Shown here piece after piece: positions 7,169-33,186 of a stretch of 35,111 bases of DNA. Origin of the DNA: Alphaproteobacteria bacterium. GTDB lineage: Bacteria; Pseudomonadota; Alphaproteobacteria; SMXP01. The position numbers and the translations under genes are program-made. The notes beneath the pieces are model-generated. The model was given only the letters and a program-made list of their open reading frames with translations. It did no database searches and had not been told where the DNA came from. Within the stretch, counting starts at the first letter, position 1. Each line of letters opens with the position of its first letter. Location: NCBI GenBank assembly GCA_021774995.1, contig JAJFIM010000109.1:1-35111 (forward strand), written 5' to 3'.

Positions 7169-7699
7169 GCGGCTGATATATTGCCCCAGTTGCACTTTCT
7201 CAAAAATGAAGCTGTCGAAATTGACGGCGTTCATTTTTTCGGTGGCACAATGTGGACCAATTTCAACAATGAAAATCCGCTGGCGATGCAGATTGCCCGG
7301 CGGGGCATGAGCGATTTCAGACTGATATACAAAGATGATGGCAGCCATTTTATGCCCGAAGACACATTGTCACTGCATCGGGATTACACTGAAAAGCTAC
7401 TTTCATGGTTTGAAACGGGGCTATCAGGGCCGCGCGTTGTCATCTCTCATCATGCGCCGGTCGTTAATTCGAACACCCAGTACGTAAACACCCCGCTCAT
7501 GCCTGCTTTTAATTCTCTGGATATGATTGAAATCATTGAAAGGCATCAGCCCGATCTCTGGGTTTACGGCCACACACATGAGTGCGATGACCAGAAGATC
7601 GGCAAAACTAGGATTATTTCCAACCAGCTTGGCTACCCTCATCGCACAGGGTTTGAATGTGCCGGTTTTGATCCGGCGGGAAAGCCTGTGGATTTATAA
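7160..7699 (+). pseudogene. 5'-truncated calcineurin-like metallophosphoesterase (paralog of 9349-10119)
   Basis: GGTMWT, SHHAP and WVYGHTH present; DxH, GD and GNHE motifs missing. Confidence 0.85.
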
Positions 7700-8647
7700 T
7701 TTTTTGATATGATCTCGAATAATGCTCAATACATCTCCAAAAGCGGGCTGACCACGATAATAAAGGCCCCGGCGTTTTTCGTATTCCTGCTTATATAGCG
7801 CATGTGTATTTCTATCTCTGAGCAAAAATGCCTCATTCTCATATAAAGGAACTTTAAGGTCAGCCTTTGGAAACCGCTTTTCTTTATGACTTTCATAGGC
7901 TGGCGTGCCGATGAACTCTAAAACGGACTTATTTTGAAGCAAACAATAGACATCATAATAATGCCGCATAAAGTTTTCGGGAAATCCGCCTTGTTCCTGC
8001 TGCTTTCGATATTTTGTAGCAATCGTTTGCAGTTTTTCAACCAATGTGTAGCCGGGATCATAGCATAAAATGTCACGAGCCCTATTATCCAATACAGCCA
8101 CATTTCGCTCAATCGCAAAATCTAATGCCCAGGATGAAATATCGACCGCATGGTTAGGAGCCACATCGTCAAACCCGGCTTCAAGCAATACGCCGTCTTT
8201 TGCAGTGCCATCTGAGGCGAAGTGCGCTTGATAAAAAAGCCTGATACCGCCGCTAAAATATTTTGGGATGCCATCGAATAGCGTATCACGGTCTGCTCTT
8301 AGAACACCTGGGATTGTAATTGTTTGCGCAAGATAATCATAAAAATCCTTACGGCTTTGGCGGTGCTGTTCCTTATCCTGATTTTTTAGAGTTTTGACAT
8401 CCATATCTTTTGGCGGACTGATATGAATATCAATATCCTCAGAAAAGCGGTCTATAATACCAAACCCTTTTGAAAGCGATGTCCCACCCTTTAACTGAAA
8501 ATCGTATCCCGCCTGTTTCAGACCAAAAAGGCAGTGCATGATCCAATAGTCTTTCTCCGCCAGATACGGATCTATGCCTTGCTCTGCCGCAACTGTGCGT
8601 ATCAGATCTGTAAATTCTGGATGATCGTGTAAAAAAGGATCAGGCAT
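7694..8647 (-). CDS. AbiEii/AbiGii-family nucleotidyltransferase toxin (intact)
   Basis: EKDYW, LKGGTSLSKG, RFSEDIDI, EKL and RHYYD motifs; start taken at the ATG overlapping the upstream stop. Confidence 0.9.
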   Translation of the reverse strand: MPDPFLHDHPEFTDLIRTVAAEQGIDPYLAEKDYWIMHCLFGLKQAGYDFQLKGGTSLSKGFGIIDRFSEDIDIHISPPKDMDVKTLKNQDKEQHRQSRKDFYDYLAQTITIPGVLRADRDTLFDGIPKYFSGGIRLFYQAHFASDGTAKDGVLLEAGFDDVAPNHAVDISSWALDFAIERNVAVLDNRARDILCYDPGYTLVEKLQTIATKYRKQQEQGGFPENFMRHYYDVYCLLQNKSVLEFIGTPAYESHKEKRFPKADLKVPLYENEAFLLRDRNTHALYKQEYEKRRGLYYRGQPAFGDVLSIIRDHIKKL

Positions 8648-9221
8648 CGGCAAGTACACTTTCAAAGAATTTCTTGCTTCTGACCCCGGCGTAATCACGC
8701 ACAGCTTTCATCAGTTTTTGCTGATCCATTGAGCGTGCTTTTTTAGCAACGTTATCTTTCAACTTTTCTTTATCCTCCGCTAAAAAATCAAGATTATTCA
8801 TCAGATCAACCAGTAAGAATTCAGGGCTGGCGGTTTTTGGAAAGCGAGGCCGCTTTACAAAGAAAAAAGGGCGTCCGGCCAGCGTAAAATGTCCATCACG
8901 TTTATGATTATACACAAGCCTTTCATTATATAGCTGAGTCGTACCAACGCCCAAAGAATTATAAGCATTTAGTGACGCCAGATAAAAGTTGTCCTCTTTT
9001 AAGAAGGTGCTCACCAGCTTTTCATCGTCTGGCGGAACAGCCCCAAAGGAAGCCTTTTTAGGGTAGTAATAAACGCCATTCCTGAGCTTCTGGAGAGTGT
9101 TATCAGCCATAAGCAGCTGCAGGTGCCTGTCAACGGCGCTGCTAAAGCGTGCCAGATCAGCCCGCCGGTAGACCTGGCCGGGGCGAAGATGCTTTCTTAA
9201 TTGTACTACTGCATTGCTCAT
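8640..9221 (-). CDS. AbiEi-like/DUF6088 antitoxin (winged-HTH N-terminus)
   Basis: GQVYRRADL...LQKLRNGVYYYPK...YNSLGVGTTQ; coupled upstream of the nucleotidyltransferase. Confidence 0.8.
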   Translation of the reverse strand: MSNAVVQLRKHLRPGQVYRRADLARFSSAVDRHLQLLMADNTLQKLRNGVYYYPKKASFGAVPPDDEKLVSTFLKEDNFYLASLNAYNSLGVGTTQLYNERLVYNHKRDGHFTLAGRPFFFVKRPRFPKTASPEFLLVDLMNNLDFLAEDKEKLKDNVAKKARSMDQQKLMKAVRDYAGVRSKKFFESVLADA

Positions 9222-22474: not shown

Positions 22475-23506
22475 TCAGTCCATAAAACGGTTATTCTCTT
22501 CAGTATCCAGAGCTTCTTCAAATATATCGACATGTTCTTCAACGGCGTTGGCATCTTCAAATGTAGCCACATGAAAAACGGCATCGCCGCTATTTAACAA
22601 AGGCAGGGTTGCCGCGCCTATGATGATCCCGGTTCTACGGGCGGTAATTTCAAATTTCTCTCTGCCAAATGGATCAGAAATGATGCCCATCGTCTGGCCT
22701 TTTTTCACGCGCGCGCCCAGTTTTGTCTTAACCGATAGTATGCCGCTATGTGGAGCGCGTATCCAGTGGCTGGAGCGGGCGATAAAAGCCTCATGCTGAA
22801 TGGGTTTCTTTTTTAAAGGATTTAGCATTCCAATTTCACGCATGACAGACAAGACACCATTAAGACCGCTTTTAATAACTCTTCCGTTAAAACGCAGAGC
22901 CTCCCCCCCTTCGAATAGCAGAGTCGGGATATTGCGCTCGCGTGTTGATTCCCGTAACGATCCATCCCTTAATGTTGAGTGCAACAGTACAGGAACATTA
23001 AAGGCGTTTGCCATTCTTTGCGTTTCTGGGTCGTCAAGGCAGGCACGTATTTGTGGCAGATTTATACGGTTGATGGCCGCACAATGCAAATCAATACCAT
23101 GGGTACATTTTTCGACAATTTCAGTCATAAATACGTGAGCTAAATGCGCTGTTAGTGAACCATTTTCTGATCCGGGAAAATTGCGATTTAAGTCGCGACG
23201 GTCGGGCAAATAGCGCGATTTGCTGTTAAACCCGAACACATTGACGATCGGTACGGCAATCAATGTGCCCTTAATGCTGTTCAGGGATTTTTTGCATAGA
23301 AGTTGCCGGATAATTTCCACGCCGTTGATTTCATCGCCGTGCACAGCCGCGCTCACAAACAGGGTTGGTCCATCGGTTTTGCCGCGTACAACTTCCACAG
23401 GAATAGTCATGTCTGTAAAATCATACAGCTTTGCAATATCAAGCAGGACACGTTTCCGTTCTCCTGGGCCCACATGCTGGCCCGCTATAATAAATTCCTC
23501 TGCCAT
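22475..23506 (-). CDS. Succinylglutamate desuccinylase/aspartoacylase (M14-like) peptidase, RimK-associated type
   Basis: AAVHGDEING, RRDLNRNFPG, GIDLH, FEGGEALRF; C-terminal barrel-sandwich domain. Confidence 0.92.
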   Translation of the reverse strand: MAEEFIIAGQHVGPGERKRVLLDIAKLYDFTDMTIPVEVVRGKTDGPTLFVSAAVHGDEINGVEIIRQLLCKKSLNSIKGTLIAVPIVNVFGFNSKSRYLPDRRDLNRNFPGSENGSLTAHLAHVFMTEIVEKCTHGIDLHCAAINRINLPQIRACLDDPETQRMANAFNVPVLLHSTLRDGSLRESTRERNIPTLLFEGGEALRFNGRVIKSGLNGVLSVMREIGMLNPLKKKPIQHEAFIARSSHWIRAPHSGILSVKTKLGARVKKGQTMGIISDPFGREKFEITARRTGIIIGAATLPLLNSGDAVFHVATFEDANAVEEHVDIFEEALDTEENNRFMD

Positions 23507-23509
23507 GTC

Positions 23510-24412
23510 TTATCCTTTATTTGCCCTACTTTTTTTGTCTGACAGTGCATATTTTTCTACATACTCAATCATCAGCCCGGCGATGTCTTTGCCTGAAGTT
23601 CTTTCTATTCCTTCAAGGCCGGGGGATGAGTTCACCTCCAGTATCAGGGGACCACGATCAGAGCGCACAATATCAACACCGGCGACATCAAGCCCCATTG
23701 CTTTGGCACCGGCCACTGCCAGTTTTCTTTCTGCAGGGGTAATCTTTATTTTCTCAGCAGAGCCGCCAGCATGCAGGTTGGAACGGAAATCACCGTCCTG
23801 TGCCTTGCGCATCATAGCGGCAATGACCTTATCGCCAATGACAAAGCACCTTATATCCGATCCGGCGGATTCTTTTATAAATTCCTGTACCAGAAAATGG
23901 GCTTCCAGACCGCGAAAAGCCTCAATAACACTCTCTGCTGCTTTTTTAGTTTCTGCCAGTATAACGCCTTTGCCCTGCGCCCCCTCCAAAAGCTTAATAA
24001 CCAAGGGTGCACCGCCCATCATAGTAATTAAATCATCTGTATTTTTTGTGGAATGGGCATATCCTGTAAGAGGCATACCTAATTTTTTTCGCGAGAGTAT
24101 CTGATGCGCCCGCAACTTGTCCCGCGCCCTTGTAACAGCCAGAGAGCCGTTAAGAGCATAAACACCGCCCATTTCAAACTGCCGCAAAGACGCCGTGCCA
24201 TAAAAGGTCACAGACGCGCCGATCCGGGAAACCACCGCATCAAAATCAAGAACTTCTTCATTGTAATGAACCTCCGGTTTGGTCGAGTTGATATTCATAA
24301 AGCATTTCAAAACATCAACAACCCTCACTTCATGCCCACGCTCTTCAGCAGCTTCAACCAGCCGTTTGGTTGAATAAAGTTCCGGTCCACGTGAGAGAAT
24401 TCCTATTTTCAT
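23510..24412 (-). CDS. rimK: RimK alpha-L-glutamate ligase (ATP-grasp)
   Basis: MKIGILSR...[48 protein letters not shown]; 300 aa from ATG 24412. Confidence 0.95.
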
Positions 24413-24413
24413 G

Positions 24414-25505
24414 TTAGTTCTTTCTCCCAATCCAGCCCTTGCGCCAAAAATAAATTAAGAGTCCGGCAGCAAATAGAGCCATTAGTCCCAATGCAAACGG
24501 ATAGCCAAAATACCAGCGCAGTTCGGGCATGTTAAGAGGCGAGACATCCGGGTCGAAATTCATGCCGTACAGCCCGGCTATAAAGCCCAGAGGCATAAAG
24601 ATCGTGGCGATGATGGTCAGAACTTTCATAACTTCATTCATTTTGTTGGACAGGCTGGACAAATAAAGGTCTGTAAGGCCCGCCGCCCGTTCGCGGTATG
24701 TCTCTAAAATATCGATAATCTGGATCACATGGTCATAGCAATCACGTAAAAATAGCTTCGTTTCGTCATGGATTAAAGGCATATCACCGGACAGGCGGCT
24801 TAGTGCCTCACGCAACGGCCAGATGCCATGACGAAGCACCTGCAAATCACGCTTTATCTCATGCGTTTGTTCCACGACTTGTTTGTCCGGATTGCCGACA
24901 ACCACGTCTTCCAGTGCATTAAGCCGTTCGCTGAAATGTTCAAGAACCGGGAAATAACCGTCCACAATCGCGTCAAGCAGGGCGTAAGCCAGATAATCAG
25001 CCTCCATAAAACGAATGCGCTGTCCGCCCTTGCGGATACGCTCGCGCACAGGTTCGAGGCAATCGCCGGGACGCTCCTGAAAGGAAACTACAAAATTCTT
25101 GCCCAGGAAAAAGCTGACCTGTTCTATGTCCAGCACATCGTTCCGCAGACAGGCCATGCGGGTAATGATAAAAATTTCCTTGTCGTACTCTTCAACTTTT
25201 GGCCTGTGATGCACATTCAAAACATCTTCCAGTGCCAGCGTATGAAGCCCGAAGATTTCCCCCAGTTTTTTCAGCAAATCTGCATCACCAAGACCGTCCA
25301 CATTGACCCATACAATTGTTCCCTTTTTCAGGAACGGCTTTATTTCTTCAGGATTTTCAATCACTTTTTCTGTCAGTTCATCCCGGTTAAACGCCATAAC
25401 CGTTACAACAGGCTCTGGAGCCTGTTCGGGCACAATCAGCGTTCCCGGTGCCGTGCCGGGCAGCTTCAGATGTGATTTTGGTAATAATCTATGTCGTTTT
25501 AGCAT
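24414..25505 (-). CDS. corA: Magnesium/cobalt transporter CorA
   Basis: [14 protein letters not shown]...[24 protein letters not shown]. Confidence 0.96.
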
Positions 25506-26694: not shown

Positions 26695-27675
26695 TTACTT
26701 GCCTCGCGGCATCATTTTAGAGACTTCAGAACTTTTAATATGAAGATCACGCTGCGGAAACGGTATTCCAATATGGTTTTTATTAAACTTGCGCCATATC
26801 TCAAACATAACTTCGCTTTGTGGTTCCCAACGTCCCTGCGTCACATCAGCCACCCAGAAATGCAAGATAAAATTCACAGAACTATCTCCGAACCCTCTTA
26901 GAAAGCATTTGGGTTCCGGCTCTGCTATGCAACGCGGATGATCTTTAGCTGCCTCTAATATAAGCTCGCGAGCTTTTTCGATATCAGATCCATAGGATAC
27001 GCCCAGTGCTATCTCTACTCGTCCCTTGGTATTGCTGAATGTCCAGTTAATCACGCGGCTTGTTATAAAATCCTCGTTGGGAATCATTATTTCTTTGCCA
27101 TCAAAGGTTTCGACCAAAGTAAAACGTGCACTGGATTTGCGAACGAAGCCAAAAGTGCCGTCACTAAGCTCCACCAAATCATCCTGCTCCACCGATTTTT
27201 CCAGCAATAAAATAAGACCGCTAATAAAGTTAGACGCTATTTTTTGTAGACCAAACCCCAAACCTATACCAAGCGCACCACTGAAAACAGTGAGAGTCGT
27301 TAAATCAATGCCAAGAATATCCAGGGTGAACAGGAAAGAAACAAAGTAAATAAAAATTTGAATTATTTTTAGAAGCAAGGCGCGGTTAGAAGCCCGCAAT
27401 TTTTTCAGTTTATTGATTCTGCTCTCTGCAACATCAGAAACTATGGCTGCTGTCCAAAAGATTAAGACAATAATCAATAACGACTTCAAGGCCTTGTAGG
27501 CACTAATTTTATAAGCACCCGCTTTAAATGACAAACCATCAGTGTCCAGATATTGTTTGGCGACATCAAAATATCCGGCAGTACCAAGGGCAAGGATGGC
27601 AATCATGGCCAGAAACATCAGCCATTTAGCAAATGCTCCTTTAGGTTTTAGTATATGTAGCCATATATTTTTCAT
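26695..27675 (-). CDS. mscS: Small-conductance mechanosensitive channel family protein
   Basis: GALGIGLGFGLQKIASNFISGLILL, IPN, GVSYGSD, FGDSSVNF, IPFPQRDL. Confidence 0.94.
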   Translation of the reverse strand: MKNIWLHILKPKGAFAKWLMFLAMIAILALGTAGYFDVAKQYLDTDGLSFKAGAYKISAYKALKSLLIIVLIFWTAAIVSDVAESRINKLKKLRASNRALLLKIIQIFIYFVSFLFTLDILGIDLTTLTVFSGALGIGLGFGLQKIASNFISGLILLLEKSVEQDDLVELSDGTFGFVRKSSARFTLVETFDGKEIMIPNEDFITSRVINWTFSNTKGRVEIALGVSYGSDIEKARELILEAAKDHPRCIAEPEPKCFLRGFGDSSVNFILHFWVADVTQGRWEPQSEVMFEIWRKFNKNHIGIPFPQRDLHIKSSEVSKMMPRGK

Positions 27676-27809
27676 GAAATCAGCATACTTATCTGGAGGT
27701 TTTATATCAACTAATCTTTATTGAAACTCAATGGTTTATAAGATGTTTTATGATCGCGGACTTCGGCTAACACCCGTATGGCAATCACCAAAAACCAAGT
27801 TTATAGCTT

Positions 27810-27847
27810 AAAAGAAAACCCCACCTTTACGGAGAAGGCGGGGTTTG
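27810..27847 (-). terminator. Intrinsic terminator
   Basis: Minus strand AAACCCCGCCTT-CTCCGTA-AAGGTGGGGTTT followed by TCTTTT, after the 106-aa gene. Confidence 0.75.
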
Positions 27848-27871
27848 ATCAATTCAATATTTAACTTTATG

Positions 27872-28192
27872 TTATTGCAACGTCCAATCCCCTTTTAACT
27901 CACCGTCACTATCCTCATGCTCGTCCGGTATATCTTCATCCGGCGTTTCAGGGTCCGCAACAACAAACCCTTTTTCGTTCATGCAGGAAGCAAATACAGC
28001 CTCCCATTGTTCCTTCGGATAGCCCTCGGTTTCTGCATCAAAAGCAATATCCTCATTAGCCATATCCGTACAGGATTCATAGGCCATCCCATAAGCATCC
28101 GACTCCTCATATACGTCATCTTCTCCAAATGCTAATTGCGGAGTCATGGACATAAAAACAATGGCTGCCGAAAGTAAAAATGGTTTTTTCAT
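27872..28192 (-). CDS. Small, very acidic secreted protein with two Cys
   Basis: Signal peptide MKKPFLLSAAIVFMSMTPQLAFG; D/E-rich; AAGGA RBS. Confidence 0.75.
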   Translation of the reverse strand: MKKPFLLSAAIVFMSMTPQLAFGEDDVYEESDAYGMAYESCTDMANEDIAFDAETEGYPKEQWEAVFASCMNEKGFVVADPETPDEDIPDEHEDSDGELKGDWTLQ

Positions 28193-28214
28193 TATCTTAT
28201 TCCTTGTCCGGTTT

Positions 28215-28237
28215 CCCTGCGGGACTCACCCGCAGGG
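28215..28237. other. Perfect 9-bp GC hairpin between two small genes
   Basis: CCCTGCGGG-ACTCA-CCCGCAGGG; no U-tract on the coding strand. Confidence 0.7.
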
Positions 28238-28251
28238 CACCAGTTCTATTG

Positions 28252-28392
28252 TTAACCGCAAGAGCCTTTGTGCGAACCGCACCCTGACTCTGATTTGCCT
28301 TTTGATTTTTTGCCCTTTTCTTCCTTTTTGGGCTGGTTTGCCGGAACCGGTTTATTGGCAGCGGATTTTTCAGTTTTTGACTTTTTTAGCAT
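28252..28392 (-). CDS. 46-aa Lys-rich micropeptide ending GCGSHKGSCG (not in ORF track)
   Basis: GGAG RBS 7 nt upstream; MLKKSKTEKSAANKPVPANQPKKEEKGKKSKGKSESGCGSHKGSCG*; own FNR-type promoter. Confidence 0.7.
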   Translation of the reverse strand: MLKKSKTEKSAANKPVPANQPKKEEKGKKSKGKSESGCGSHKGSCG

Positions 28393-28463
28393 GGTTGTTC
28401 TCCATTAAAATTTGTAACCTTTAGCGGCCACAGCGATGACCCGATTCTTCAGATCACGATAAA

Positions 28464-28504
28464 ACTATAAAATTTTCCCTGGCAAAAAACTTGACGATAG
28501 TCAA
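28464..28504 (-). promoter_or_regulatory. FNR/FixK-type box with class II promoter geometry
   Basis: TTGAC-GATA-GTCAA (28491-28504); -10 TATAGT at 28469-28464. Confidence 0.75.
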
Positions 28505-28534
28505 TAAAACAGACTTTGTATGAAGCCACCTGAT

Positions 28535-28732
28535 TTAGTCACTTGAAATGGCAAGATCAATACCGTCACCGTCATCTTCATCGTATTCGTAATCACCATC
28601 TGACATTACATCCTCAATCTCATCAATAAGATCGTTGATCAAGCCATGTATATTACGATTATTGGTAAAGCGATGCGCGTCATGTTTCAAATCCTTGACC
28701 TTGTTTCAAAGCACCTCTAAATTATCTGACAT
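28535..28732 (-). pseudogene. 65-codon acidic small ORF with in-frame TGA at codon 9
   Basis: AAGGA RBS; MSDNLEVL*NKVKDLKHDAHRF...DEIEDVMSDGDYEYDEDDGDGIDLAISSD*. Confidence 0.55.
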
Positions 28733-28745
28733 AACAAAAGATTCC

Positions 28746-28955
28746 TTAATCTATATCTTTATCCATATCTTCGCGGTGAACACCCCAGAAGATGACGTCA
28801 CTTCCAAAATTACCTTTGCCACCAAACAGCGCACCGTTAGCTTTTGGTGTGGATTTTTTTGTTTTTACACCGGGCTTGTTTCCGAACATATTGGCCGGAT
28901 CGGCGGTATGTTTCTTGACATTGTCAGATGTCGTTACAATGGTTGGTGTTTTCAT
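28746..28955 (-). CDS. 69-aa hypothetical small protein
   Basis: GGGAG RBS before MKTPTIVTTSD...; directly downstream of an FNR-type promoter. Confidence 0.6.
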   Translation of the reverse strand: MKTPTIVTTSDNVKKHTADPANMFGNKPGVKTKKSTPKANGALFGGKGNFGSDVIFWGVHREDMDKDID

Positions 28956-28985
28956 GGCTTTTCTCCCGCTACTGGACACACTTAA

Positions 28986-29027
28986 AGTATGAAATAAATC
29001 ACCTTTTTAAAACTTGATGACGGTCAA
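28986..29027 (-). promoter_or_regulatory. FNR/FixK-type box with class II promoter geometry
   Basis: TTGAT-GACG-GTCAA (29014-29027); -10 CATACT at 28991-28986, placing the box centre at about -41.5. Confidence 0.78.
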
Positions 29028-29183
29028 TTTTTTAAGGGACAGGAGAGAATATTTTGGTTCCAGCCTGTGATGTTTTTACCCGGTGCCAGTTTTTCATTAA
29101 GGAGAATTATTAGCTATGGGCACCTCACGGAAAGACATCACAGGCATTACTTAACAATTTGAGTTAAAAAAGGAACCAAAGCT

Positions 29184-29702
29184 ATGGCACATCCTGCTGA
29201 AAAAGAACCTCATACACCTGTCAGCGACAGGCCCGAGGAAAAGATTGATCCGGCAACAAACATGATGTTCGCACCGTTTTTTGTCCTGCAACGGGAAATC
29301 AATCATATGTTTGCCGATACCATTAAAAACTTCGAATTACCCAATAACTGGCATGGTATAGGGAAAAGCCTGCCGTCTGTAGATATCAAGGAAAATGATG
29401 AAGCCTTCAGCGTGCAAACACACCTGCCAAGCAAGCGGCCTGAAGATGTTGAGGTAAGCATTGCTGATGATTTTCTGACGATTAAAGCGCATCATAAAAC
29501 AAACGAGAAAAAAGAGACGGAATTTGGCCCATGGAGTCCTTATACTGCTGGAAACCATCTGCGCACTGTCATGCTGCCGGAAACAGCAAATATAGACAAA
29601 GCAGTTGCTGAAATGAGCGATAACATTTTAACCATCAAAGTTCCAAAAAAGCAGGAAGCGGTCGATAAAACCCGGAAGCTTACGATTAAAAAGATCAAAT
29701 AA
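29184..29702 (+). CDS. Hsp20/alpha-crystallin small heat-shock protein
   Basis: LQREINHMF, PSVDIKEND, LTIKA, RTVMLP...A.MSDNILTIKVPK. Confidence 0.88.
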   Translation: MAHPAEKEPHTPVSDRPEEKIDPATNMMFAPFFVLQREINHMFADTIKNFELPNNWHGIGKSLPSVDIKENDEAFSVQTHLPSKRPEDVEVSIADDFLTIKAHHKTNEKKETEFGPWSPYTAGNHLRTVMLPETANIDKAVAEMSDNILTIKVPKKQEAVDKTRKLTIKKIK

Positions 29703-29733
29703 TTTGTTCACTACCCCTTTAATACCAATCCCT

Positions 29734-29761
29734 GAAGCCCCCATGATGGGGGCTTCTTTTT
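29734..29761 (+). terminator. Intrinsic terminator after hsp20
   Basis: GAAGCCCCCA-TGA-TGGGGGCTTC followed by TTTTT. Confidence 0.85.
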
Positions 29762-30545
29762 ACATTAACTTCAGGATGCGGCAAATATCACAATCTGCTT
29801 TCGTGCAAAGCAGCTTTTCCTTGAGCGTACATTCTGACTCACGGCAACAGTAAATTTCGCAGTAATCCTGTAATTCATCCAGATCACCAATGGTAACTTC
29901 ACGGCCTTTAAACCGCATATCCAAATCATGTTGCAGCCGCCGCATGGCACGGGAAAAGGTTTCCGGTTTCATGCCAAGACGCTCGGCAACAAGAAACTTG
30001 TTAAATGGCAACATCACCTGTTGAACGCCACCCCGGTCAAGACATAGTTTTAAAAGAAAGGCAGCAACGCGCTGTGCCGCCGTTAGCTGACTTGATAGCT
30101 CTAGTACAAATCCTGATTTATTGAGATGATCTGCTAACGATGAAATCATTTTCAGGGCTAATTCGGGGTGATCTCTCAACCGTTCCCGCATGGTAGAGGA
30201 AGGGATAACAAGGCATTTAGCGTCCTTACCCCCGACCTGCGCACTACAGGGATAGGAACGCCCCTTTACAACGCATTCTTCACCGAATGTATCACCCCGT
30301 GTTAGCAGTGCCTGTACGACTTGTTCACCTTCCACGTTGTCATGAAAAAGTTTGATCCAGCCCTCCATAATGACATAAAGAAAATCTGCCGGATCGCCAT
30401 GCTGAAAAAGCAGGTTGTTTTTCTGATATTCAACAAAGCGGGAATGTTTCAAAAACCAGTCAATATCTACATCAGACAATTCCGCAAAAAATGGAACTGT
30501 TTTAAGTAAAAGTTTGTTGTTTATTTCATTCTTTGCGGCAATCAT
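29760..30545 (-). CDS. CRP/FNR-family regulator with C-terminal Cys-rich tail
   Basis: cNMP-fold LFQHGDPADFLY...GWIKL...GDTFGE; HTH VAERLGMKPETFSR; tail YCEIYCCRESEC...LC...DCDIC. Start 30545 preferred over 30593. Confidence 0.92.
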   Translation of the reverse strand: MIAAKNEINNKLLLKTVPFFAELSDVDIDWFLKHSRFVEYQKNNLLFQHGDPADFLYVIMEGWIKLFHDNVEGEQVVQALLTRGDTFGEECVVKGRSYPCSAQVGGKDAKCLVIPSSTMRERLRDHPELALKMISSLADHLNKSGFVLELSSQLTAAQRVAAFLLKLCLDRGGVQQVMLPFNKFLVAERLGMKPETFSRAMRRLQHDLDMRFKGREVTIGDLDELQDYCEIYCCRESECTLKEKLLCTKADCDICRILKLM

Positions 30546-30566
30546 AAATAATAATTCCAATAAAAG

Positions 30567-30608
30567 TTGATGATGGTCAAACTTTTTCACCACTATCCTT
30601 TGTATCCT
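30567..30608 (+). promoter_or_regulatory. FNR/FixK-type box driving the CBS gene and overlapping the regulator's own upstream region
   Basis: TTGAT-GATG-GTCAA (30567-30580); -10 TATCCT at 30603-30608, placing the box centre at about -41.5. Confidence 0.8.
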
Positions 30609-30645
30609 GAGATTGTATCACACATGCAAGCAAAGGGAGACTGTC

Positions 30646-31146
30646 ATGAAAACAAGTAACAATACTTCACCTTTACAAATAATTTTAAATAAACGGCCAC
30701 TTTTAACCGTTTCCCCAACAGACTTGATTCGCATGGCGGCCTGCTTAATGCAGGAACATCATGTTTGTGCAACCGGTGTTGTTGATGATGAAGGCAGGTT
30801 CATCGGTCTTTTAACGGAACGCGATATTATAAAACAGGCCGTGGGGGTCCACAGAAACGTAGATAAAACGATGATTGGTGAGATTATGACCATCCAGCCT
30901 ATCGTTATTCCGATGACAGCAACAATATATGAAGCCTTAACCGCTATGACCCACCACGGCATCCGCAACCTACCCGTTGTTGATGGTGAGAAATTGGTCG
31001 GTATCATTGATATCCGTGATCTGTATGAAGCAATGCAAAACCTGATGCAAAAAGCCATGGATGAAAAAGACCTTGTGATTTCCTATTACTACGGTGAAGA
31101 CTACGGAGGGTGCAAAGAATCACCCCGTCCTTTTGGTGCGGTTTAA
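30646..31146 (+). CDS. CBS-pair domain protein
   Basis: GLLTERDI...EIMT...IRNLPVVDGEKLVGIIDIRDL; GGGAG RBS before ATG 30646. Confidence 0.9.
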   Translation: MKTSNNTSPLQIILNKRPLLTVSPTDLIRMAACLMQEHHVCATGVVDDEGRFIGLLTERDIIKQAVGVHRNVDKTMIGEIMTIQPIVIPMTATIYEALTAMTHHGIRNLPVVDGEKLVGIIDIRDLYEAMQNLMQKAMDEKDLVISYYYGEDYGGCKESPRPFGAV

Positions 31147-31515
31147 ACCTTTTACCCCGTTATAAGATGGCTGGTCTGTTATTTTTGGGATAGTACAAAC
31201 ATCATGAGAATTATCGTTTTTCTTTTATTACTATGTTTTCCGGCCTTGGCTCAGGAGGGCAAACCTACCCCTACTGATGAATTACTGCAGAACATAACGG
31301 ACGGTCCGCATGATAATATTCATCACGCCGGCCTTTGAAAATGACTCCATCGGCCAGAACCTTTATCGTGCTAGAAATAAAATAAAAGAAATCAAAAATA
31401 CTATAACGCCCAATTTCAAAAGATCTGCTTAATCATTTGCTCAAGTAATAGCTATTGCTAGCAAAAGAATTTAACAAATGTTCATTTAAGTTAAGGTAAT
31501 AGGTTATAATTCCCC

Positions 31516-33186
31516 ATGACTAACGAGCCGATGCACTCCCATAAGAATTCTTTTGCTAAAAGTAGGATTGCGTTATACCAAATGCTATCCTTACCTGTTC
31601 CTAAAATATTATCTTTTTTATTGCTTTTATCTGGCGCTGTTTTGCTAATATCAGGGGCCACTCCTACGGATCCATCCTATCTAAAATGGCTGCGTGGAAC
31701 TATACCCTTGCCTGTTCTGGAAGTATCTCACTTAATTACAAATTTGACAGGTCTTCTCCTTTTGCTTTTAGCAAGAGGAGTAAGACTACGGCTTGATGCA
31801 GCTTGGTATGGCAGTGTTATCTTATTGGCATTGGGAATAGTCGCCTCTTTACTAAAGGGCTTAGGGTGGCAAGAGGCTTTATTCTTATGTGCGCTGTTGC
31901 TTTTAGTGCTGCCAACTAAAGGTTACTTTTATCGTAAATCTTCTTTGTTTTCTATGTCGTTTAGTCTTTCATGGGTTTCAATGATATTTGTGATTTTATG
32001 CGGCTCTGTATGGATCGGTATTTTTGCATTTGAATCTGTTGAGTATGACAGGGATTTATGGTGGCACTTTTCTTATCAATCAGACGTATCTCGTTTTTTA
32101 AGAGGTGAGCTTTTAGTTATTATCACATTAACTTTTTACGCCCTTTATAGACTCCTGAATGTTGCTCGTCCTAAATTTCCTCCTGCTTTATCTATGCAGG
32201 AATTAGATGAAGTTCATGAGTTAACAACACAGGGAGAGGACATAAAGGGTTTTTTGGCTTTACTCGGAGACAAACATTTATTTTGGAGCGATGATAGAAA
32301 AGCATTTATTATGTTTGTCGACACCCAAAAATATTGGTTTGCAATAGGAGACCCTATTGGTGAAAAAGCCTTGTTTAAGAAACTTTTGTGGCAATTTCAT
32401 GAGCAGGCTGATCTTTATGGGGCAAAAGCTGTTTTTTATCAAACTAGCCAAGAATATTTATCGAATTACCTTGATCTTGGCTTAGTACTACTAAAAATGG
32501 GTGAAGAAGCAATCTTGTTATTAGAGGATTTTTCTTTAGAAGGAAAAAAACGATCCGATCTTCGTAGTGGACGAAACAAGTTCAATAATTTGAACTACAC
32601 ATTCGCTGTCGTAGGTAAAAAAGAAGTCCCGGACATTCTACCACGCCTAAAGGAGATTTCAGATCAGTGGCTCAACAAAAAGAACGCGCGTGAAAAAGGG
32701 ATCTCATTAGGATTCTTTAATAACTCATACTTAGAGCGTTGCCGTCAGGCGGTAGTTAAAGACGATCAAGGAAAAATTATGGCTTTTGCAAATATTTGGG
32801 AAGCAGAAGGTAATAAGGAAATATCAGTTGATCTAATGAGATATGATCCCCAATGCCCAAATGGAGTAATGGATTATCTTTTTGCTGAATTAATGCTTTG
32901 GGCAAAGAGCGAAGGATTTCAGACTTTTTCTTTTGGAATGGCACCTTTATCTGGTCTTGAACGACATCCACTTGCTCCTCTTTGGCACAAAATTGGTACG
33001 GCTATTTTCGATTTAGGTGAAGAGTTTTATAATTTTGAAGGCCTTTACGAATACAAAGCTAAGTTTGGGCCACGGTGGTTTCCACGCTATCTTGCGGTTC
33101 CTGTAGGGGTATCGATACCTATGATTTTAATCACGCTTTCGCGTTTAATTTCTCAGCCTATTAAATACTCGTCCAGTGTAAAATAA
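31516..33186 (+). CDS. mprF: MprF/LpiA aminoacyl-phosphatidylglycerol synthase (DUF2156) lacking the N-terminal flippase region
   Basis: LLISGATP, LALLGDK, GDPIG, KMGEEA, EKGISLGFF, SVDLMRY, MAPLSGL, YNFEGL..YKAKF; 556 aa. Confidence 0.9.
   Translation: MTNEPMHSHKNSFAKSRIALYQMLSLPVPKILSFLLLLSGAVLLISGATPTDPSYLKWLRGTIPLPVLEVSHLITNLTGLLLLLLARGVRLRLDAAWYGSVILLALGIVASLLKGLGWQEALFLCALLLLVLPTKGYFYRKSSLFSMSFSLSWVSMIFVILCGSVWIGIFAFESVEYDRDLWWHFSYQSDVSRFLRGELLVIITLTFYALYRLLNVARPKFPPALSMQELDEVHELTTQGEDIKGFLALLGDKHLFWSDDRKAFIMFVDTQKYWFAIGDPIGEKALFKKLLWQFHEQADLYGAKAVFYQTSQEYLSNYLDLGLVLLKMGEEAILLLEDFSLEGKKRSDLRSGRNKFNNLNYTFAVVGKKEVPDILPRLKEISDQWLNKKNAREKGISLGFFNNSYLERCRQAVVKDDQGKIMAFANIWEAEGNKEISVDLMRYDPQCPNGVMDYLFAELMLWAKSEGFQTFSFGMAPLSGLERHPLAPLWHKIGTAIFDLGEEFYNFEGLYEYKAKFGPRWFPRYLAVPVGVSIPMILITLSRLISQPIKYSSSVK

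Follow-up and report, generated by a model that had tools for sequence, protein, structure and literature searches.

A CRP/FNR regulator with a C-terminal cysteine tail, its own class of candidate binding sites and a proposed local regulon on an alphaproteobacterial contig

Introduction

Regulators of the CRP/FNR superfamily are known to sense oxygen through an iron-sulfur (Fe-S) cluster that lies either at the N-terminus, as in the FNR of Gram-negative bacteria, or at the C-terminus, as in Bacillus Fnr. In Escherichia coli FNR the [4Fe-4S] cluster is ligated by C20, C23 and C29 plus C122, and the protein activates transcription from sites at about −41.5 and represses its own gene. Members of the DNR/NnrR class sense nitric oxide (NO) in a haem-dependent manner in the barrel domain. 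Here we analyze a CRP/FNR regulator with a cysteine-rich C-terminal tail, together with three FNR-like sequence boxes close to its gene. They lie on contig JAJFIM010000109.1 of assembly GCA_021774995.1, binned as an alphaproteobacterium; we refer to the whole stretch of 35,111 nucleotides as the window.

The nearest precedent for the tail is Bacillus Fnr. In the sections of two reports on which we draw, its [4Fe-4S] cluster is bound by three cysteines of a C-terminal extension and one aspartate (PMC3520743; PMC12937710), the cysteines forming the motif C-x2-C-x4-C with the aspartate as fourth ligand (PMC3520743). A preliminary description of the locus under study had likened the tail to this arrangement, and had proposed that the regulator is an atypical O2, NO or metal sensor that activates a CBS gene and microproteins and probably represses itself. 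We have examined each of these proposals by sequence and structure comparison.

The regulator and its cysteine tail

The gene and the relevant parts of its product are as follows.

29760..30545, minus strand: CRP/FNR-family regulator, 261 amino acids from the ATG, taken from the list of open reading frames (ORFs); stop codon at 29760-29762
29949..29963, minus strand: recognition-helix motif ETFSR, residues 195-199, with E195, S198 and R199 invariant in alignment A1
29763..29861, minus strand: C-terminal tail, residues 229-261, defined from the homologue alignment as C229-x3-C233-(C234)-x4-C239-x7-C247-x4-C252-D253-x-C255-RILKLM

The protein matches the Pfam models cNMP_binding (63.2 bits, cut-off 27.5) and HTH_Crp_2 (47.5 bits, cut-off 27), and belongs to the CRP/FNR superfamily with an N-terminal barrel and a C-terminal winged helix-turn-helix (HTH). 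FtrB (NF006901) is the top NCBIfam model, but the score of 103.2 bits is well below the equivalog cut-off of 211. There is no cysteine within residues 1-90, the first being residue 91, and the N-terminal cluster of E. coli-type FNR is absent. The E--SR helix and the TTGAT-N4-ATCAA-like sites nearby are those of FNR-type recognition, from which binding is predicted on sequence grounds. In a profile search of the PDB the best scores were to the Ruegeria pomeroyi entries 3fx3 (163.7 bits) and 3h3z (163.5) and to DNR (3dkw, 125.8), while FNR chains reached just 68-69 bits. An AlphaFold2 (AF2) model has a mean predicted local distance difference test (pLDDT) score of 85.9, and Foldseek places CRP/FNR structures at the top over about 223 columns (E = 5e-19 to 3fx3). 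The alignments to 3fx3 and 3dkw end at residue 229 or before, i.e. where the tail begins. The tail itself is modeled with two short helices at a pLDDT of 59-68.

The tail of about 33 residues, YCEIYCCRESECTLKEKLLCTKADCDICRILKLM, contains seven cysteines. The translated ORF thus agrees with the preliminary description in the missing N-terminal cluster, the ETFSR helix and the cysteine count, although the protein does not end at ...DIC as had been stated; seven further residues follow (RILKLM), and this terminus is amphipathic. A word-indexed search found 132 relatives, and we counted tail residues in the first 40, which span 45-100% identity and all bear the tail. C233, C239, C247, C252 and D253 are each present in 40/40, C229 in 36, C234 in 18 and C255 in 5. 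Beyond the tail, alignment A1 (34 rows) has no invariant cysteine. The tail as such is therefore kept throughout, with four cysteines and one aspartate invariant, although just four to five of the original seven cysteines are conserved. The conserved spacing is C-x3-C-x5-C-x7-C-x4-C(-D). The protein therefore has a C-terminal cysteine extension, but with a spacing other than that of Bacillus Fnr, and the comparison made at the outset has to be corrected in this respect.

What the tail binds can be read in several ways. Most likely is an O2-labile Fe-S cluster carried by the four invariant cysteines, to which we give a probability near one half. Four cysteines within about 20 residues would suit a Zn(Cys)4 site equally well. 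The tail could then be a structural or metal-sensing knuckle for zinc or another metal, with the signal received in the N-terminal β-barrel (DNR-like, by haem and NO) or being the metal itself, and with the DNA side unchanged. The closest solved relatives by sequence, DNR and the Ruegeria protein, are tail-less. A Pfam scan of the 40-residue tail found no family, and a PDB sequence search with the tail returned TAZ1 domains alone, all zinc-binding, at non-significant E-values of 1.7-6. Several of the candidate targets described below are acidic or cysteine-ended small proteins that could bind metal. The genomic contexts of related proteins speak against this reading, as discussed in the next section.

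The tail could also act as a metal-free thiol-disulfide switch, oxidation of which locks or releases the DNA-binding domain. Such switching has been reported for CprK and Lactobacillus FLP. It would be in keeping with five to seven closely spaced cysteines, among them a pair spaced C-x4-C and a CC pair that varies, and with stress-like targets (Hsp20, a CBS pair, and an old-yellow-enzyme neighbor in the homologous locus L085). A disulfide needs two cysteines, however, whereas four and an adjacent aspartate are invariant here, and the family's precedent for C-terminal cysteines is an Fe-S cluster. We consider a thiol switch improbable.

A narrow clade among C-terminal-cysteine regulators

We constructed a FastTree phylogeny from 218 proteins of 215-300 amino acids, excluding longer and shorter ones; the set had no Bacillus sequence. 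All sequences were cut 27 residues past the recognition helix, and six rows in which the helix pattern was unmatched were dropped. As the tail was removed in this way it could not shape the tree. All 38 tail-bearing rows group together behind a branch with support of 100, so that the CRP/FNR tree proposed in the preliminary description places the tailed proteins in one tight clade. In a profile search of 1.84 billion representatives the clade appeared as a single representative (P0016, 434 bits) and the next match fell to 286 bits, indicating that the clade is narrow. Its hosts are uncultured, mostly marine alphaproteobacteria.

The sister group (support 85) comprises 82 rows, in 72 of which there is a shorter tail, C-x2-C-[STAC]-x3-8-C. 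The clade tail looks like an elaborated form of the sister-group tail, because the second and third cysteines of the sister motif match C233 and C239 in a Tyr-anchored alignment made by eye. Genomes related to the window carry two to five further CRP/FNR paralogues, which have the same ETFSR helix and other C-terminal cysteine tails and are without an N-terminal cluster. Examples lie at L187 9481-10215 and L188 3774-4478 (both genome G002) and L183 1039-1761 (genome G004), with others in L180, L182 and L184; their tails are of the types C-x2-C-S-x5-C-x-D and C-x2-C-D-x7-C-x7-C.... C-terminal cysteine tails are thus common in neighboring, uncharacterized proteobacterial branches of the family, and the regulator is not the one-protein oddity that it had been taken for.

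The surroundings of these relatives link C-terminal cysteine tails to anaerobic respiration. In G002 the paralogue(s) lie in a narK-narGHJI-hemN-moaA cluster with eight TTGAT-N4-ATCAA boxes (genes named from size and N-terminal sequence), and in G004 a paralogue adjoins a gene read as ccoN from its N-terminal sequence. Yet another type of tail occurs in relatives that carry a fused NIT nitrate/nitrite-sensing domain; P0141, P0154 and about 20 more proteins of 500-530 amino acids have this NIT-CRP/FNR architecture with a cysteine-rich C-terminal tail. Such a fusion may combine the sensing of nitrate and of O2 within one polypeptide, and the paralogues with C-terminal cysteine tails may be global O2 regulators of the related organisms. 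A further protein, P0121, is a tandem double CRP module. Control by O2 or N-oxides, as suggested by the nar, cbb3-oxidase and NIT associations of the sister and neighboring branches, argues against a zinc or other metal knuckle, and radical-SAM targets in two relatives (below) fit low O2. We therefore regard the zinc knuckle as rather unlikely, though a live alternative.

Earlier reviews of the family, that of Körner et al. from 2003 among them, may deal with some of these branches. In the literature that we searched there was no description of the clade or of the wider proteobacterial branches, and the Bacillus-type C-terminal cluster alone turned up. The sections of PMC545781 on which we draw contain nothing on C-terminal cysteine tails of this kind.

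Candidate binding sites travel with the regulator

Three boxes of FNR type are found close to the regulator gene.

28491..28504: box 1, TTGACGATAGTCAA, left flank aaaaaac
29014..29027: box 2, TTGATGACGGTCAA, flanks aaaac and tttttt
30567..30580: box 3, TTGATGATGGTCAA, in the intergenic region between the regulator and CBS genes, flanks aaaag and actttt

The pattern TTGAYNNNNRTCAA (TTGAY-N4-RTCAA) has these three matches in the 35-kb window where 0.27 would be expected, and 0/100 shuffles reached three, which bears out the boxes at 28491, 29014 and 30567 listed earlier. We compared 16 homologous loci (L001-L007 and L081-L089) whose regulators are 46-77% identical to that of the window; three pairs are identical, leaving 13 unique loci besides the window. 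At least one box is present in 15/16. In total there are 17 boxes (14 unique) over these 15 loci, spanning 93.7 kb, for which the density in the bin (29 per 3.16 Mb) predicts about 0.9. The position of box 3 is occupied in eight further unique loci. L004 begins 18 nt before the regulator gene, so its upstream side could not be judged. Counting the window, 13 unique loci have an upstream flank; nine of these have a box ≤100 nt before the regulator, and in the remaining four (L002, L003, L081 and L084) it lies 13-390 nt past the stop codon. Scanning the homologous loci, as had been suggested, thus reveals that the boxes move with the regulator.

The local boxes are of a distinct kind. Position 5 is C in 24/34 half-sites, the spacer is GC-rich, and each of the five bases after the flanking G/A is T in 23-30 of 34 half-sites. 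The full site is then a 26-bp palindrome, AAAAAC-TTGAC-N4-GTCAA-GTTTTT. A flank of at least four T is found on neither side of any of the bin's other 26 boxes. Plain boxes number 35, 33 and 34 in the related genomes G001, G002 and G004, where a control pattern has 5-6 matches. A one-sided extended pattern matches 4/4, 2/2 and 2/2 sides of their local boxes, and elsewhere in these genomes 3, 0 and 1 sides. The local boxes are therefore unlike the FNR-type boxes found elsewhere in the bin and the related genomes. Comparison shows that the regulator travels with its own class of candidate binding sites.

A contrary view is that the boxes are served mainly by a global FNR-type paralogue of the host, making the tailed regulator a target and not the master. 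The 33-35 plain boxes per related genome and the two to five additional ETFSR paralogues are what this view would lead one to expect, and in G001 an Hsp20 homologue lies behind a plain box beside such a paralogue. Yet boxes of the local class, marked by C/G at position 5, a GC-rich spacer and flanking T-tracts, hardly occur outside the regulator locus in five genomes and the bin, and they follow the regulator across loci that range from 37 to 59% GC and have differing neighbors. Moreover, paralogues of type A have their own upstream box type, TTGAC-AAAA/CAAA-GTCAA. Service by a global paralogue thus seems quite unlikely.

Promoter geometry and proposed autorepression

A class II activator site near −41.5 places the start of the −10 hexamer about 29.5 nt from the centre of the site. 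The following promoter-like elements are found around the boxes.

28464..28469, minus strand: −10-like TATAGT, 28.5 nt left of the box 1 centre; in L001, L002 and L003 this offset is taken by TATAGT or TATATT
28986..28991, minus strand: −10-like CATACT, 29.5 nt left of the box 2 centre
29050..29055, plus strand: −10-like TATTTT, 29.5 nt right of the box 2 centre and facing the Hsp20 gene; overlooked in the preliminary description
30603..30608, plus strand: −10-like TATCCT, the proposed CBS promoter, starting 29.5 nt from the box 3 centre (class II, about −41.5)
30551..30580, minus strand: promoter-like site for the regulator from a promoter scan, TTGACC (the distal half-site of box 3)-18 nt-AATTAT

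We scanned the 34 unique box sides for −10-like hexamers, defined as at least 4/6 matches including A2 and T6. In 17/34 sides such a hexamer lies 28.5 or 29.5 nt from the box centre (12 at offset 36 and five at offset 35). Other offsets have mostly 0-2 and never more than five. The class II geometry proposed from the distances of 28.5, 29.5 and 29.5 nt in the window is thus reproduced in silico as a peak at the same spacing across the homologous box sides.

On the other side of box 3, the AATTAT hexamer ends six bases before the regulator ATG, and the RNA would start at or beside the ATG (30545). Box 3 is 28.5 nt from this ATG and overlaps the promoter-like site; in the window, L001, L082/L083 and L085 alike, 34-35 nt separate the start of the box from the ATG. 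The promoter of the regulator appears to use a half-site of the box as its −35 element. The mRNA may thus be leaderless, and occupation of the site would cover the −35 and lead to autorepression. Probable self-repression had been put forward before, and the position and overlap of the box fit with it.

Neighboring genes and candidate regulon

The genes that adjoin the boxes, with the hairpins located by a terminator scan, are listed below. The terminator-like hairpins close both outer operons.

30646..31146, plus strand: CBS-pair protein, 166 amino acids, divergent from the regulator; Pfam CBS 95.3 bits; box 3 rightward (TATCCT)
29184..29702, plus strand: Hsp20/alpha-crystallin small heat-shock protein, 172 amino acids; Pfam HSP20 62.8 bits; box 2 rightward
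29734-29756: terminator-like hairpin after the Hsp20 gene
28746..28955, minus strand: 69-amino-acid orphan from the ORF list, the first gene left of box 2; box 2 leftward (CATACT)
28535..28732, minus strand: acidic microprotein gene with the motif HGLINDLIDEIE, the second gene of the box 2 leftward operon
28252..28392, minus strand: Lys-rich microprotein of 46 amino acids with a Cys-rich end, ...GCGSHKGSCG; box 1 leftward (TATAGT)
27872..28192, minus strand: secreted acidic protein of 106 amino acids with two conserved cysteines, following the Lys-rich microprotein in the box 1 operon
27816-27846: terminator-like hairpin after the secreted acidic gene

In L001, L007, L083, L085 and L087 the gene that diverges from the regulator is a CBS orthologue (43-48% identity). 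No CBS orthologue was found elsewhere in genomes G002-G005 at E = 1e-15 or better, so the CBS gene is a candidate target only where it is adjacent. The acidic HGLINDLIDEIE microprotein, which is present in three database clusters only, is next to a box in the window, L001 and L002, and occurs also in L083, where the contig ends before any box. Counterparts of the Lys-rich microprotein stand behind the equivalent box in L001 (41 amino acids, ending GCC) and L002 (ending GGCC), and relatives of the secreted acidic two-cysteine protein are behind a box in L001, L002/L086, L003 and L005/L089. For the latter protein a search of a protein atlas gave unnamed clusters with a best score of 0.80 and no lead. 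Among the loci compared the Hsp20 gene and the 69-amino-acid orphan adjoin a box in the window only. The orphan has no Pfam or NCBIfam match, and a homologue search with it returned itself alone. The Hsp20 of G001 (44% identical) is behind a plain FNR-type box beside the type A paralogue, with a non-canonical −10 spacing. The CBS gene and microproteins that the preliminary description named as targets are thus box-linked in relatives too, but its list was incomplete, Hsp20 being a likely further target.

Other box-linked genes occur in the relatives. A three-helix membrane protein of about 100 amino acids with a PQ motif is next to a box in L001, L084 and L085. A radical-SAM lysine-2,3-aminomutase-like gene is behind a box in L081 (3910-5337) and L084 (3334-4886), followed by a Ddl-like ATP-grasp gene, and a methyltransferase-ATP-grasp fusion is next to a box in L006 (1971-3923) and L088 (956-2887). 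The radical-SAM and ATP-grasp genes may specify a small pathway for a β-amino-acid compound made only at low O2.

Codon 9 of the acidic microprotein ORF is an in-frame TGA (28706-28708 on the minus strand); at this place the L001 and L082 orthologues encode Trp. The same TGA is present in contigs of four runs from one study. The part that is open from TTG 28690 encodes 51 amino acids. The TGA could be a nonsense allele with restart at TTG 28690, or be read through. Recoding of TGA as Trp was rejected, as 9/33 long ORFs of the window end in TGA.

From the −10 to its start codon the Lys-rich microprotein gene has a leader of about 65 nt (28393-28458 on the minus strand of the window, L001 5469-5543 and L002 5107-5180) that can be aligned as DNA, with the proteins only about 65% identical. 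Folding of the three sequences predicted a weak structure of −6.6 kcal/mol with a covariation term of −0.1, the 5′ end pairing with the Shine-Dalgarno region. An Rfam scan of 27500-31600 with E-values up to 1 gave only sub-threshold matches to Phe_leader (25.9 bits) and NsiR4 (21.4 bits), and there was no ROSE-like heat-shock leader before the Hsp20 gene.

Further afield, a RimK ATP-grasp ligase is encoded a few kb from the regulator in the window (22475-24430), L001 (1702-3151) and L081 (521-2981). In the window it is accompanied by an AstE/AspA-like deacylase; its companions in the relatives are an M42-like peptidase and a retropepsin-like protease. An MprF-like protein (31516-33186, plus strand; phosphatidylglycerol lysyltransferase C-terminal domain, 316 bits) is encoded directly 3′ of the CBS gene, with no box seen before it. 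Other genes of the window are concerned with ion homeostasis (NhaA, a Na/H exchanger, CorA and MscS), and the ORF at 7694-8698 on the minus strand has a Pfam match of 99 bits to AbiEii, the nucleotidyltransferase toxin domain of a type IV toxin-antitoxin system.

Host assignment of the contig

The contig has a GC content of 44.5%, compared with a median of 54% for its bin (G000). The regulator was not found in six genomes of the bin's family, one of them of the same genus and 92% complete, nor in 34 further genomes of the class. The window also encodes a housekeeping-type disulfide oxidoreductase, whose identity to the counterparts of G001 and G002 is 68% and 65%, but only 57% and 55% to those of the same-genus and same-family genomes. 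For these three reasons the contig is probably mis-binned or acquired. The region is matched without differences by contigs of four DNA runs, all of one biofilm study, wherever these cover it.

A model for regulation

We propose the following mechanism. A dimer of the regulator would bind the extended sites at about −41.5 and activate the adjacent promoters in class II fashion. Activation would extend to the CBS gene, the operon of the orphan and acidic microprotein, Hsp20, and the operon of the Lys-rich microprotein and secreted acidic protein. At box 3 the bound dimer would at the same time cover the −35 of the regulator's own, probably leaderless promoter and so repress it. As in Bacillus Fnr, the tail would place an Fe-S cluster behind the DNA-binding domain, most likely a [4Fe-4S] cluster ligated by the four invariant cysteines. 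The protein would be active at low O2, or when oxidative or nitrosative stress is absent, and would lose activity on damage to the cluster. The output would be a small local gene set of a stress or dormancy type and not a global respiratory regulon.

The DNA side of this scheme is well supported by comparison, and the sensing chemistry is what we infer from precedent and context. An Fe-S tail is indicated by the example of Bacillus Fnr, by the nar, ccoN and NIT contexts of the paralogues, and by the radical-SAM targets in two relatives. Several observations weigh against the scheme. The spacing C-x3-C-x5-C-x7-C-x4-C fits no characterized Fe-S FNR, and the tail is modeled with low confidence by AF2 (pLDDT 59-68). 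Pfam is blank on the tail, and the non-significant TAZ1 matches keep structural zinc alive as an alternative. The candidate targets in the window include no respiratory gene, and one target ORF carries the in-frame TGA. Paralogues with the same ETFSR helix might cross-bind the boxes, and the bin's other CRP/FNR genes (C371 and C484) may not share a host with the regulator. Taking all this together, we give an even chance to the full proposal, i.e. that the protein is an O2 or redox sensor with a tail-bound Fe-S cluster (or thiol or metal site) driving a small local regulon.

Comparison with known systems

The closest proteins in both sequence and fold are DNR of Pseudomonas aeruginosa (3dkw), the R. 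pomeroyi protein (3fx3/3h3z) and FtrB; Foldseek ranks 1-4 and 11 go to structures of this set, and FtrB is the top NCBIfam model. DNR and 3fx3/3h3z end where the tail of the regulator begins. The FNR proteins of E. coli and Aliivibrio fischeri (Foldseek matches 8qto and 9qly among others) share the E--SR helix and a box of the type TTGAT-N4-ATCAA with the regulator, and its proposed activation from about −41.5 and self-repression would be further features in common. In contrast to them the regulator lacks the N-terminal cysteine cluster, and its boxes are set apart by C/G at position 5, a spacer rich in GC and flanking T-tracts.

The proteins of the sister group, from Micavibrio, 'Rickettsiales' and Rhodospirillaceae metagenome-assembled genomes, are uncharacterized and include paralogues in the same genomes. 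Their Y-x-C-x2-C-S-x5-C-x-D tail is shorter than that of the clade, with three cysteines and without C247, C252-D253 and the terminal helix. Unlike the clade members they adjoin ccoN, as read from its N-terminal sequence, or have a box type of their own.

In its proposed output the locus resembles the DosR dormancy regulon of Mycobacterium tuberculosis, a hypoxia response that includes the α-crystallin HspX and the stand-alone CBS-pair protein Hrp1. DosR is an unrelated two-component response regulator, and the apparent likeness is one of output, with no homology claimed.

Judged by sequence, what is new here is a conserved CRP/FNR clade with its own cysteine tail, its own extended site and a proposed small local regulon. 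A bolder interpretation, which we offer tentatively and do not consider probable, is that the clade represents a third independent placement of an O2- or redox-sensing Fe-S cluster on the CRP/FNR fold, in an all-cysteine site of four invariant residues behind the HTH. It would then be the derived tip of a large and undescribed radiation of C-terminal-cysteine regulators in the Alphaproteobacteria and neighboring groups, whose simpler members (C-x2-C-x5-C and the NIT-fused C-x2-C-D... type) replace the FNR with an N-terminal cluster in the control of cbb3 oxidase and nitrate respiration. The clade would form a dedicated switch for a hypoxia- or dormancy-like module of a CBS pair, a small Hsp, a nucleoid-like Lys-rich microprotein and a periplasmic acidic protein, kept apart from the global regulon by its extended 26-bp site. 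The locus also offers a compact case of insulation between paralogues, in which the recognition helix is shared and the classes of site differ in position 5, in the spacer and in their T-tract flanks. The proposed targets form a small, defined set, among them conserved microproteins without known function.

In the position of its sensor the regulator is closest to the Fnr of Bacillus subtilis and B. cereus. In those proteins the sensor cysteines are located behind the DNA-binding domain and not at the N-terminus, as are the predicted sensor cysteines here. The two differ in spacing, which is C-x4-C-x2-C-x3/4-C in Bacillus Fnr and C-x3-C-x5-C-x7-C-x4-C-D, with four invariant cysteines, in the regulator. 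They differ also in the longer tail of the regulator with its terminal amphipathic RILKLM, in the alphaproteobacterial host, and in scope, Bacillus Fnr being a global regulator whereas a local regulon is proposed for the tailed protein. If the tails do bind Fe-S clusters, the division into N-terminal sensing in Gram-negative and C-terminal sensing in Gram-positive bacteria is wrong, and these proteins would form a natural series showing how ligand geometry tunes the reactivity of a cluster.

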